A stretch of 63,626 bases of DNA, the filler included, from Globobulimina sp. (lineage: Eukaryota), in the NCBI GenBank assembly GCA_003354225.1. It is 51 parts of 51 records of this genome, joined end to end, with 100 filler letters (N's around TTAATTAATTAA, not from the genome) between each part and the next. Parts side by side here need not be neighbours in the genome. Positions count along the whole stretch, not along the records: positions 42,494 to 43,642 come from PIVH01022312.1; 50 more parts are not named here. One strand, 5' to 3'. The translations under genes were made by a program, and so were the position numbers. The notes under the pieces are model-generated. The model was not told where the DNA came from. It searched no databases and saw nothing but the letters and a program-made list of their open reading frames with translations. Positions 9,466 to 43,742 of the stretch are shown one piece after another. Each line of letters begins with the position of its first letter. Within the stretch, counting starts at the first letter, position 1.

Positions 9466-9533
9466 TCTCGACGCCAGGATTCGAACCTGGATCTTGCATA
9501 AAAACAATGCTCTGCCCATTGAGCTACGCGGCA
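9466..9533 (-). pseudogene. tRNA-like element or tRNA pseudogene
   Basis: GCCGCG-TAGCTCAATGGGCAGAGC-...-CCAGGTTCGAATCCTGG: intact D and T arms, degraded anticodon and acceptor stems. Confidence 0.7.
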
Positions 9534-11559: not shown

Positions 11560-11628
11560 GTGCACATAGCTCAAATGTAGAGCACTGGCGATCGCCAGGG
11601 ATACAGGTTTAAATCCTGTTGTTGCACT
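11560..11628 (+). pseudogene. tRNA-like element with palindromic anticodon arm
   Basis: GTGCACA-TAGCTCAAATGTAGAGCA-CTGGCGATCGCCAG-GGAT-ACAGGTTTAAATCCTGT-TGTTGCAC; acceptor, D and T stems can pair. Confidence 0.7.
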
Positions 11629-22500: not shown

Positions 22501-23650
22501 GTCAATGTGATCAACAAAGAGAAAAATAACATGAAGTTGACCACAGTGATCAACAATTACAACGTCAACGACTGGAAGATCCAACGGCAGCGAGGCCATG
22601 GTTTCCTGGAATCTGTGTTCCATTATGCGCACAAATTGCTATTTTTAGGCTTTATAATGATCATTGAAAATACGTCCGATACGAGATATTGCGGCTATTT
22701 GTTGCTGCGCTCCATGGCGGACATCTTAGTGGGCGATAAGTTAGTGTCCAAGATCGATAAATTGAAGTTTGCGTTCGAGTCTGCGATGTCGCTCTGGGTG
22801 CGCAAGAATGGCGTTTTGATCTCTTCCTATTTCGCCAATGCGTATCCTGGCTTAGGCTCGTTATTATTTCGTGTGTGTATCCAGTACGCGGAGGACAAGG
22901 ACCGCGCGGAATGGATCTCTGCGTTCTTGAAACCATGGGCCACGGTCATACATTTGATGCCCGACACACAAATGACGCCCAATACCATCCCGGTCTATGT
23001 GCAGGAATACAACAAATCGCTCGGAGCTATGCACAAAAACACGTCGGATTCTGCCAGCAGAGAAGAAGAATATAAGTACGATATCCCGCCTTCGAAAGCA
23101 GCACAAGCCAAGCACCAATATAGCAGCGATACGAGCAATATAAAATATAATAACCAGCAGCAACAGCCATATATACATAAGGCAGCCTCTGTGGATGTGT
23201 CCAAAGTGGATCGCAAAACGCACCGCCACACCAAACACCAGACCCTGACCCTATTGACCGGCTTATACGACAGCACCGTGGACGCCAGAGACGATTTACA
23301 GACGTCGTTTCTGAAAGTTTGGACCGATTTGTCGCGGGCCTTTCCGTACGAGAATTTATTTGCCATTTTGGACTTTGTGCTCAAGAAAGTAGGCGAGGCC
23401 AAATTGTTACCGGTGCAGACCTTTAAAAATGTCATCATCCCCACGGTGAAGAATATATTTTTCGCCATTTACGAGCCCCGCATCAATCGAGCCATTATGA
23501 CGGTGTATATCGTGCGGATAATATTGCATGTTTTGACCATCGGCGCCGACGATTATCGCCAGAAAGGGTTGATTGTGAAACAACGCGCTGCGGAAATACT
23601 GACCACTTTAGAAGAGAGGCTGGCGCGCGAATCTTCTGACAATAATACGG
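22501..23650 (+). CDS. Large helical-repeat (HEAT/ARM-like) protein, internal fragment
   Basis: Frame open across the whole contig; amphipathic helices; GC clearly higher than neighbouring contigs. Confidence 0.55.
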
Positions 23651-41405: not shown

Positions 41406-41473
41406 GATTCTTTAAATAGTGAGCAAGTTTTTGTACGAAAACTTAAGGTAAAATAGTTAAATATTTCCTTATC

Positions 41474-42393
41474 ATGTCGTGGAAACCTCGTCAGCAAAAT
41501 AACAAACAATGGAGAAAATCACAGAACCATAATTATAATGATGCTGGCGATGAATATTGCAATTACAGACAAAATAAACCATATTACAGCAATAACAACA
41601 ATTATAGCAACAGAGATCCACAATCATATAACTCATATAACTCATATTCAAATTATGGATATAACTCAAATTATAACAGCAATAACAATTACAATAGATA
41701 CAATAACAAACAATATGAACAGTATCAAAATCAAGTTAACAATCAAGTGAACAAACCACGTTGGATCAATAAAAACAGCAAAGACGTTAAATATGTTAAA
41801 AATACTGGAAACTTCCAAATTGAAGACATTGCATTTCACGAATTAACAAACACATTACAATCAATTTGGGATAAATATTATCATAAAAACGAAGAATATA
41901 TTGAGAAAATAATATTTTTATGTGGCCCACCAGGCTGTGGAAAGACGAGTGTTTGTAATTATGTTGAAAAATATTATAATTTAAATAAATTAAATAATAA
42001 TCAATATATGATTGATGTATCCAACATATTAAGTGCTGTGATGAAAGCAAATAACAGAAAATTAATTATGTCAAAAGCATACGAATTATTATTTAAACAA
42101 ATATTCGATACAAAAAATAAAATATTAATTATTGATGGATTTTTAAGGAAAGAACAACATGTTTATGTCATAGATTTTCTTCAATTATATATGAAAAACA
42201 CAAGTTTTATATTTTTGGTTTTAAATGTGGATGAAAATACATCTGTTATAAGACAACTTGAAAGGGGTAAAAAATTGGTGAAACTATCAAATAGCAACCA
42301 AACTAATAATGACAATGAGGAAAAAGAAGGAAATAAAAATAAAAAGATAAGATTAAAAGATTCAGACTTATGTGAATATGCAGCAACGAAAAG
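41474..42393 (+). CDS. Adenylate/NMP kinase-like protein with N/Y/Q-rich N-terminal extension; 3' partial
   Basis: FLCGPPGCGKT P-loop, IIDGFLR, L.VDE..SV.RQL.RG. Confidence 0.8.
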
Positions 42394-42493: not shown

Positions 42494-42840
42494 GGAGCGA
42501 CCTCGACATTCAGACCAAGAACTGTATCATCACCATTTACAATTTGAAATGAACCTTCAACATACACTTTACTGTCGGTAAATTCATCACTGACAGCCGG
42601 TATTCTGAAGGTGATCGATTGATCGGTGCCCTGAAGTTGGGTCAGGGGTTGAAATGACTGCCATTGTTCCGATGTTATACTAAGTTGAACAGGGTCAAGA
42701 TCAAATAACTGGAATACACTTATTATATGACATTCAGTAACCACAAAACATCGATAAACAATTACCTCTAAACTTTGAACACCGGCGATGGGCTGAGTGG
42801 GCATAGTATTTTTCACAATTCTTTTCCTTTTGGGCGCCAT
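42494..42840 (-). CDS. Polinton/Maverick-type major capsid protein, N-terminus; probable intron at 42709-42765
   Basis: Spliced SLELFDLDPVQLSI..EQW..FQPL......SITFRIP..SDEF.D...YVEG.FQIV.GD..L parallels the Polinton MCP N-terminal pattern (ELDLF..P.TQ.SI...W....P......IEF.I.....Y.D....L....I...DG..L). Confidence 0.8.
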
Positions 42841-43349
42841 TATTTAAACAGAGTTTTTAACTGTTTCAAAATTTCGGTCTTGGTCAATTTTTTAGAATCT
42901 TTTTTACCAACTTTACGACCGCCTTTTGTAGGCTTTTTTTGTACTTTTTTGCCTTTGCCGACTTTACTTTTACGCTTACCAGCTGTTGCCCGTTTAAGAC
43001 CTGCTTTAGGTTTTCTTTTTTTCTGAATTCTACCTCCACCCCTTTTTGGTTTACGTGCCTTCTTTAGTACTCTTTTCTTAGTTTTCGCCTTTCCCCCTTT
43101 TTTTCCCTTTGAACGCTTTCTTTTTGGAGATGGTGAATCGTTGTAGAAATAAGTTTCTGGCCACTCGATAGTATCAAGACCACGAATGTTAGAGGGACCA
43201 CTTCCTCCAATTACACCAATGGGACCTTGTTGTCCACTTAGAGGAGTTTCGTATGTTACAGGTTTATATTTGGCTAGTAATTTAGACAATGAATTAATAA
43301 ATTTATTCTGTAGATTACTTGGTGCACCTTGACAATATGACATTATCAC
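42840..43349 (-). CDS. Lys/Arg-rich putative viral core (genome-condensing) protein
   Basis: Very basic C-terminal half; IGGSG site; lies between penton and MCP; its stop overlaps the MCP start (TAATG). Confidence 0.65.
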   Translation of the reverse strand: MIMSYCQGAPSNLQNKFINSLSKLLAKYKPVTYETPLSGQQGPIGVIGGSGPSNIRGLDTIEWPETYFYNDSPSPKRKRSKGKKGGKAKTKKRVLKKARKPKRGGGRIQKKRKPKAGLKRATAGKRKSKVGKGKKVQKKPTKGGRKVGKKDSKKLTKTEILKQLKTLFK

Positions 43350-43421
43350 ACAACAATGATTATCAAAACAGCGTGTTTATGACTAATCATGAATGATGAA
43401 ATAGACAATGTAAACAACACG

Positions 43422-43640
43422 TCATACTGGGAATACAAAACTGATATGCTTAAATTTCAACATGACATAGGCGCTTTCGTCATTGTCCATAAAATCTACA
43501 ACTTCTTTGAATTGAGAATCGAAAAACTTAAAACTCAAAGTATTGACGTAATTACTTACAACGGGCATATATACAAGCTCATTAAATTCGACAGTAATGC
43601 GCTTATTTAAGCTTAAATCCAACATTGGTACTGGTATCGT
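43422..43640 (-). CDS. Polinton-type minor capsid (penton) protein, C-terminus
   Basis: TIPV...ITVEF..LVYMPV....VNTLSF.F.D.....V.F......VMLKFK matches the penton C-terminal strand pattern. Confidence 0.72.
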   Translation of the reverse strand, partial: TIPVPMLDLSLNKRITVEFNELVYMPVVSNYVNTLSFKFFDSQFKEVVDFMDNDESAYVMLKFKHISFVFPV

Positions 43641-43742
43641 ACNNNNNNNNNNNNNNNNNNNNNNNNNNNNNNNNNNNNNNNNNNNNTTAATTAATTAANN
43701 NNNNNNNNNNNNNNNNNNNNNNNNNNNNNNNNNNNNNNNNNN

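Follow-up and report, generated by a model that had tools for sequence, protein, structure and literature searches.

A probable short spliceosomal intron in a capsid-like gene of a compact, virus-like element from a Globobulimina sp. assembly

Introduction

The question raised by this locus is whether a stretch of 57 nt, lying close to the start of a capsid-like gene, is an intron removed by the spliceosome of a nuclear host, or whether it is translated as an ordinary part of the protein. Introns have been described before in viral genes and viral elements. In mirusviruses, GT-AG introns number in the tens of thousands, with a length peak of ~80 bp and an enrichment in genes of virion morphogenesis, and they were taken as a sign of nuclear transcription and reproduction; pandoraviruses and chloroviruses are also named there as having spliceable genes (PMC12768974). 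In dinoflagellate genomes, ~25% of the annotated integrated viral elements contain introners, and these elements are mostly maverick-polinton-like or giant dsDNA viruses (PMC11957031). The capsid gene of Faustovirus E12 is reported to be spliced (PMC6247863), and group I introns, which are ribozymes of 309–376 bp, adjoin PLV capsid genes (PMC12220804). Intact vertebrate Mavericks are reported to be intronless, a result described as consistent with Kapitonov and Jurka 2006 (PMC8097293), and the 2014 Polinton capsid paper contains none of the terms intron, splic- or exon (PMC4028283). Pipelines for the discovery of endogenous viruses assume that there are no introns, and use prokaryotic gene callers (PMC10120064, PMC9356565). 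In the literature we found no Polinton or PLV capsid gene described as having a short spliceosomal intron at a conserved position, and supplements may contain such cases.

The window and its host background

The window is the whole stretch of DNA that was analysed, 63,626 bases long, and it is not a single locus: it comprises 51 unlinked contigs of 1149–1150 bp each, ordered by size, separated by N44-TTAATTAATTAA-N44 spacers, and with a GC content of 0.27–0.47. Because these 51 contigs are unrelated, arguments from “neighbouring” genes across the spacers are invalid. The first-pass annotation had tied the virus to its host through the introns seen in this window, and this tie is not supported, since those introns lie on contigs unlinked to the virus-like contig. 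A crude intron scan of the other contigs gave 429 raw candidates and 82 best-per-ORF-pair rows, many of them false, and among them are plausible short introns of ~36–105 nt in which the donor is GTATGT or GTAA. The 57 nt of the present segment agree with the range of these candidates, without being diagnostic.

ORFs of at least 380 codons under the standard code are present on 9 of the 51 contigs, for which reason we considered but did not adopt a genetic code of ciliate type, and the assembly is that of an AT-rich eukaryote, most likely using the standard code. In a Pfam search of the 20 longest ORFs from the remaining contigs, the domains recovered were cyclin, UCH, RBR/IBR ligase together with ubiquitin, AAA/adenylate-kinase-like, GATase and GHL15, among others; 12 of these 20 have no Pfam match, and none of them matches a virus hallmark family, the Polinton ones included. 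In the ORF at 41447–42391 (plus strand), an AAA/adenylate-kinase-like P-loop domain comes after a long N-terminal region of low complexity, rich in N, Y and S, and this sequence, together with the long ORFs lacking a Pfam match, points to a divergent, AT-rich, protist-like host. The contig at 22501–23650 stands out with a GC content of 0.467, as against 0.27–0.40 elsewhere, and its 383-codon ORF lacks Pfam matches; its source may be a different organism present in the sample. The only Rfam matches in the window are two tRNAs, at 11561–11627 (plus strand) and 9472–9528 (minus strand).

Gene layout of the virus-like contig

The 57-nt segment lies on one contig of 1149 bp, of which blastn finds no further copy in the 63-kb window, recovering the contig itself alone. 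Its features are as follows:

42494..43642, minus strand: virus-like contig, 1149 bp, flanked by N/TTAATTAATTAA spacers
42766..42840, minus strand: exon 1 of the capsid-like gene, ATG at 42840-42838, 25 codons, MAPKRKRIVKNTMPTQPIAGVQSLE
42709..42765, minus strand: candidate spliceosomal intron, 57 nt, phase 0, GTAATT…TTCCAG
42496..42708, minus strand: exon 2 (partial) of the capsid-like gene, 71 codons from LFDLDPVQLSI…, no Met codon, cut by the contig end
42843..43343, minus strand: basic ORF upstream of the capsid-like gene, 167 codons from the ATG at 43343, stop TAA at 42842-42840
43425..43640, minus strand: further upstream ORF, C-terminal 72 codons, stop TGA at 43424-43422, cut by the contig end

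Three tightly packed ORFs, all on the minus strand, occupy this 1.15 kb and each of them is intact up to the contig ends, the capsid-like one running off the contig at 42494 with 115 unspliced codons present. The stop TAA of the basic ORF shares one base with the ATG of the capsid-like gene in the overlap TAATG (42838-42842, minus strand), and this overlap, together with the dense ORF packing, is a compact, virus-like arrangement. In exon 1, the basic stretch PKRKR resembles a nuclear localisation signal in its sequence, and basic N-termini are also present in the relatives P0008 and P0009, described below. The 167-codon basic protein consists almost entirely of K, R and G in its C-terminal half (…KRKRSKGKKGGKAKTKKR…), a composition with which it might work as a DNA-condensing core protein; it also carries a VIGG|S motif, which we take to recall adenain-type cleavage sites, and it matched nothing in Pfam, PHROGs or PDB. 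For the 72-codon upstream fragment, the Pfam and PDB matches are all sub-threshold.

Another GT..AG segment that is possibly an intron, 120 nt long, is found at 43308-43427 (minus strand; CCA|GTATGA…CTACAG|AAT). The stop of the upstream ORF falls inside its donor, and its removal would fuse the upstream ORF in frame with the K/R-rich ORF; a 4-nt deletion at 43389, within this segment, is present in one contig of the public run X1. Chance GT..AG pairs are common, and a second intron here is only a lead.

Sequence and composition of the 57-nt segment

On the minus strand the gene reads ...AGT TTA GAG|GTAATTGTTT...GTATTCCAG|TTA TTT GAT..., with the segment running from 42765 to 42709, and the first-pass description of it as GAG|GTAATT…TTCCAG|TTA, 57 nt in frame and stop-free, is exact. 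It falls between codons (phase 0), its stop-free translation is VIVYRCFVVTECHIISVFQ, and once it is removed ...QSLE abuts LFDLDPVQLSI.... Its ends have the features of a U2-type intron, namely GT and AG termini, a consensus-like donor (GAG|GTAATT, identical to GTAAGT, the donor consensus, at 5 of 6 positions), and a pyrimidine-rich acceptor (GTGTATTCCAG|TT). Candidate branch-point motifs are TTACTGAAT, 25 nt 5' of the AG of the segment, and ATAATAAG, closer to its 3' end. The composition differs from that of the exons, with a GC content of 0.30 and a T content of 0.44 in the segment vs. 0.42–0.45 and 0.28, respectively, in the exons. Rfam gives no match to the segment, and a group I or group II intron or any other known RNA was rejected, given that Rfam returned just the two tRNAs elsewhere in the window. 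As a check for introners, the contig was compared by blastn with the 63-kb window, where the segment occurs only once.

The bare GT..AG pattern is weak evidence, no better than chance: the 345-nt ORF contains 56 GT..AG segments of 40–100 nt, of which 17 are multiples of 3. A shuffled 57-nt segment is stop-free in frame 13% of the time, and the joint chance of a segment being both in frame and stop-free is ~0.13 × 1/3. The abundance of chance GT..AG pairs, and the uninterrupted in-frame reading of the segment, would also suit the alternative that these 19 codons are a real, lineage-specific coding insertion, such as a hydrophobic loop with a Cys or a piece of an N-terminal arm, which both this lineage and the relative P0008 would translate, with GT and AG ends that are coincidental. 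The intron-like composition of the segment speaks against this alternative, and so do the homologues and the diverged copies of the element presented in the two following sections.

Homologues across the exon junction

A phmmer search of 1.84 billion representatives gave 7 matches at E up to 0.001, of which P0005 and P0006 were discarded as bacterial repeat proteins, and a profile search of a 5.8-billion set added P0011-P0014, so that nine relatives were examined. They align to exon 2 with E from 8e-21 to 1e-2, and all nine are fragments of 82–158 aa on contigs of 467–3174 bp. Searches for longer, full-length members came back empty, and the capsid-like family is very rare in databases.

The junction is reached from upstream by three of the nine relatives, P0008, P0009 and P0014. 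Both P0009 (…DPSTS-LFETN…) and P0014 (…NPSLD-LFQTTPIQTS…) continue across it without any insertion, and the spliced form of the window gene, …SLE-LF…P.Q.S…, matches …SLD-LF…P.Q.S… of P0014. The segment is therefore absent from two of the three homologues that span the junction, and its removal restores the conserved LF..P.Q.S-like sequence. In a further three relatives (P0004, P0011 and P0012) the ORF starts on the first exon-2 codon itself (MFNLNPVQLSI, MFKHSPVQLSI), which suggests that the frame upstream of this codon is closed in them, and the remaining three begin farther downstream, being uninformative on the junction. Both the two relatives lacking the segment and the three ORFs starting at the exon-2 codon speak against the 19 codons being a coding part of the protein.

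The third junction-spanning relative, P0008, behaves differently and has a 24-aa insertion exactly at the junction (SSLN-VRTC…YVLQ-LFQCRPLQLSI). An equivalent insertion in a homologue had been set beforehand as the observation that would count against an intron, and P0008 supplies it in part, that is, at the same site but with a different length and with V…Q ends. Beginning with V and ending with Q is the expectation for a translated GTN…CAG intron, in a comparison made at the protein level, where the GT/AG ends of relatives are read from residues alone. The insertion resembles the translated segment of the window (R.FV…C.IIS.V.Q, ~9 of 16 aligned columns alike), and this likeness is higher than in the exons (~40%). 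A conserved coding loop could produce such a likeness, and the same site and similar translated tail, C.IIS.V.Q, do count in favour of a coding insertion. Another explanation would be that P0008 is a close copy that has decayed neutrally, in which otherwise conserved residues have been lost, or the likeness could come from conserved 3' splicing signals. The differing length and the V…Q ends agree more readily with a shared intron than with a coding loop.

In the protein alignment A4, the similarity among the relatives is lost at two further shared points, the first after …ISG(xTGG) in P0004, P0007 and P0012, and the second after …GF(K) in P0003, P0011 and P0013, with V as the next residue in two of these three. 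Close pairs differ at these points, with P0004 breaking where P0011 reads on. These two shared break points hint at more introns, or at presence/absence polymorphism.

Diverged copies of the element in one sample

The contig was found in a single public run, X1, which we regard as DNA because its longest record is 98 kb; no RNA run was found to contain it, and runs X2 and X3 gave no matching contig. In X1, 36 contigs match (10 at at least 99%, 12 at 95–99%, 12 at 90–95% and 2 below 90%), and from these four levels of divergence it follows that the element is multi-copy or polymorphic. No joined, segment-free form occurs among these matching contigs, all of which are DNA. There are also loose ends at 42795 and 42950 in X1, with copies diverging completely upstream of there.

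One of the matching contigs, record 2 (42698-42893), spans the whole 57-nt segment and includes 11 nt of exon 2. Given that differences less than 30 nt from a contig end are unlisted, the assessment of this record stops 19 nt short of the 3' end of the segment and so leaves out the AG, and in the 38 assessed intron bases there are 9 listed substitutions (~24%) vs. 3 in 98 flanking coding bases (Fisher p = 5e-4, or p = 0.014 when the 3 unlisted differences of record 2 are all charged to the exons). The nine intron changes are at would-be codon positions 3, 1, 1, 2, 2, 2, 2, 1 and 2, and this copy, with two extra bases (TT) inserted behind 42754, has a segment of 59 nt, the donor GTAAT being unaltered; both the TT insertion and the substitutions rest on one contig, at depth 14. 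In this one contig, therefore, the segment has evolved as non-coding DNA does, with an indel that is not in threes, with no third-position bias, and faster than the exons. The copy in record 2 could also be a fresh pseudogene.

In contrast, the listed differences between copies are synonymous in 5 of 6 cases in the capsid-like exons and in 6 of 8 cases in the basic ORF, by which the flanking exons are evidently under purifying selection; for the ORF farther upstream the count is 8 synonymous out of 17, with conservative replacements, e.g., V/I, making up many of the others. This opposition between exons that change mostly synonymously and a segment with a 2-nt insertion and ~24% substitutions, most of them off third positions, stands against the coding insertion, which we regard as improbable. 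Owing to the same 2-nt insertion, the earlier suggestion that retention of the intron could give a second isoform is not supported, because in the sister copy, with its 59-nt segment, retention would shift the frame.

The existence of many copies, diverged inside one sample, brings in the further alternative that this is a decaying endogenous copy, with the segment being a junk insertion or duplication in a pseudogene, neither spliced nor translated. The shortness of all the database relatives and of their contigs, and the apparently degraded state of P0008, would agree with decay, but the three intact ORFs of the contig and the mostly synonymous differences between copies in the capsid-like exons and the basic ORF do not, and a random insertion would not explain why the same codon boundary is marked by the insertion of P0008 and by the ORF starts of P0004, P0011 and P0012. 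We consider this alternative improbable as well.

Because the homologues, the evolution of the diverged copies and the composition agree, the 57-nt segment at 42765..42709 (minus strand) is, in our reading of these sequences, probably a canonical GT-AG phase-0 spliceosomal intron. The spliceosomal assignment of the first-pass annotation thus finds support in the homologue alignment and in the diverged copies, but not in the GT..AG pattern alone, of which there are 56 in the ORF.

Identity of the capsid-like gene

The same annotation had called the gene a major capsid gene and linked it to Polintons, and both labels go further than the evidence, given that no sequence or fold test shows them and that the ESM Atlas look-alikes alone point to capsid families of the double-jelly-roll type. 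For P0003 and for the distant P0014, the nearest named clusters in the ESM Atlas are Sputnik_MCP_1st (PF21915), DJR-like_dom (PF21738) and Capsid_N (PF16903), in capsid clusters that are mostly of Preplasmiviricota, with scores of 0.95–0.97 and with recognition values of 2081 and 2243, which are under the 2300 mark of the tool. For P0014, 9 of the 10 best Atlas matches having a family share the family or clan of the top one. The motifs SL[DE]LF…P.Q.S and NYPY presumably match an uncharacterised animal/protist family associated with Polinton-like elements.

Other searches gave no assignment. Neither the window protein nor 8 relatives match a capsid family in Pfam at E up to 10, PHROGs have no match to the window protein, and PDB profile searches gave only unrelated matches at chance level. 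AlphaFold2 models of the N-terminal 144–158 residues have a mean pLDDT of 35.9 with a 5-sequence alignment and 39.3 with a 9-sequence alignment, too low for a usable fold, the family sequence at hand being the N-terminal ~115–158 residues only. No relative was found in IMG/VR scans with P0002 (the exon 2 translation), A2, P0014, P0013 and P0011, no relative or longer related locus in metagenome scans, and no match by tblastn against phage records. There are no Polinton hallmark genes on the 1149-bp contig, and protein-primed PolB, rve integrase, packaging ATPase and cysteine protease were likewise not found in the 20 longest ORFs elsewhere.

We lean, as a lead only, towards a capsid-like gene of the double-jelly-roll type. 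It is possible, though we rather doubt it, that the intron is real and the gene is not the Polinton/Maverick major capsid protein, belonging instead to another nuclear DNA virus or endogenous viral element (giant-virus-like, or of an unclassified lineage), or encoding a different structural protein. This possibility draws on the lack of any capsid HMM, PDB sequence or fold match, on the missing hallmark genes, both on this contig and in the 20 longest ORFs elsewhere in the window, on the lack of relatives in the IMG/VR and metagenome scans, and on the presence of the giant-virus family Capsid_N beside virophage-type families among the Atlas look-alikes. It has against it that both Atlas queries are nearest to double-jelly-roll capsid families, mainly of Preplasmiviricota, and that compact, overlapping genes with an adjoining basic protein suit a small virus.

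Discussion

The sequence of events that we propose is the following. The capsid-like gene would belong to a compact, multi-copy, virus-like element, with the intron lying 25 codons into the gene. The element would be transcribed in a nucleus, where the host spliceosome would remove the 57 nt and join ...GVQSLE to LFDLDPVQLSI.... This splicing would restore the N-terminal SL[E/D]-LF..P.Q.S motif as it is found in the intron-less relatives, and the protein encoded by the resulting mRNA would begin with a basic, NLS-like stretch (MAPKRKR…) and continue into the conserved LF..P.Q.S block. That the segment is in frame and free of stops in this copy would most likely be an accident, and not a device for making a second isoform.

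Several known systems resemble this arrangement in part. As in mirusviruses, a short GT-AG intron of protist-like length would lie in a virion-type gene of a DNA virus-like element (PMC12768974). Mirusviruses, however, are large Duplodnaviria with an HK97-type capsid, whereas here the gene looks double-jelly-roll-like, as a lead, and sits in a tightly packed, small-virus-like context; here, moreover, one intron is seen directly. The dinoflagellate proviruses offer another likeness, having spliceosomal-type introns in integrated Polinton-like elements that still encode a capsid (PMC11957031 / PMC12166617). Their introners, as described there, are multi-copy, transposon-derived and mostly acquired after integration, whereas the 57-nt segment has no second copy in the 63-kb window, and, as diverged relatives also show it at this codon boundary, it would seem to have been passed down with the gene.

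With Polintons/Mavericks and polinton-like viruses, the element shares its multiple copies, compact same-strand genes and a capsid-like gene, and it differs from intact vertebrate Mavericks, reported as intronless (PMC8097293), in having a candidate intron. It is also unlike the group I introns of PLVs (PMC12220804), in that the segment measures 57 nt and has no Rfam match. In giant viruses, too, interrupted capsid and other genes need splicing, and their introns are of other types or sizes. By analogy with these systems, an intron in the gene of a small DNA virus is uncommon, yet it has precedents, and mirusviruses, the introners of dinoflagellate proviruses and the splicing of giant-virus capsid genes make it less surprising.

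If the intron is confirmed, a capsid-like gene dependent on the host spliceosome would imply nuclear transcription, and virus searches that are blind to introns would miss such genes, which would be a blind spot in the surveys. Among ~1.8 and 5.8 billion proteins, all the relatives measure 82–158 aa, as one would expect of an ORF broken up by introns. As a tentative joint reading, which we put forward as less probable than not, the contig and its relatives could stand for a lineage of small viruses or proviruses of the double-jelly-roll type (Polinton-like, Preplasmiviricota) with several short, native spliceosomal introns in the capsid gene, these introns being inherited at fixed codon positions, while the exons are under purifying selection. 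Such a lineage, if true, would be a small-virus counterpart of the intron-rich mirusviruses and would be invisible to surveys that use prokaryotic gene callers and 200–900 aa ORF filters, and this invisibility would explain why only fragments of 82–158 aa are present in the databases.
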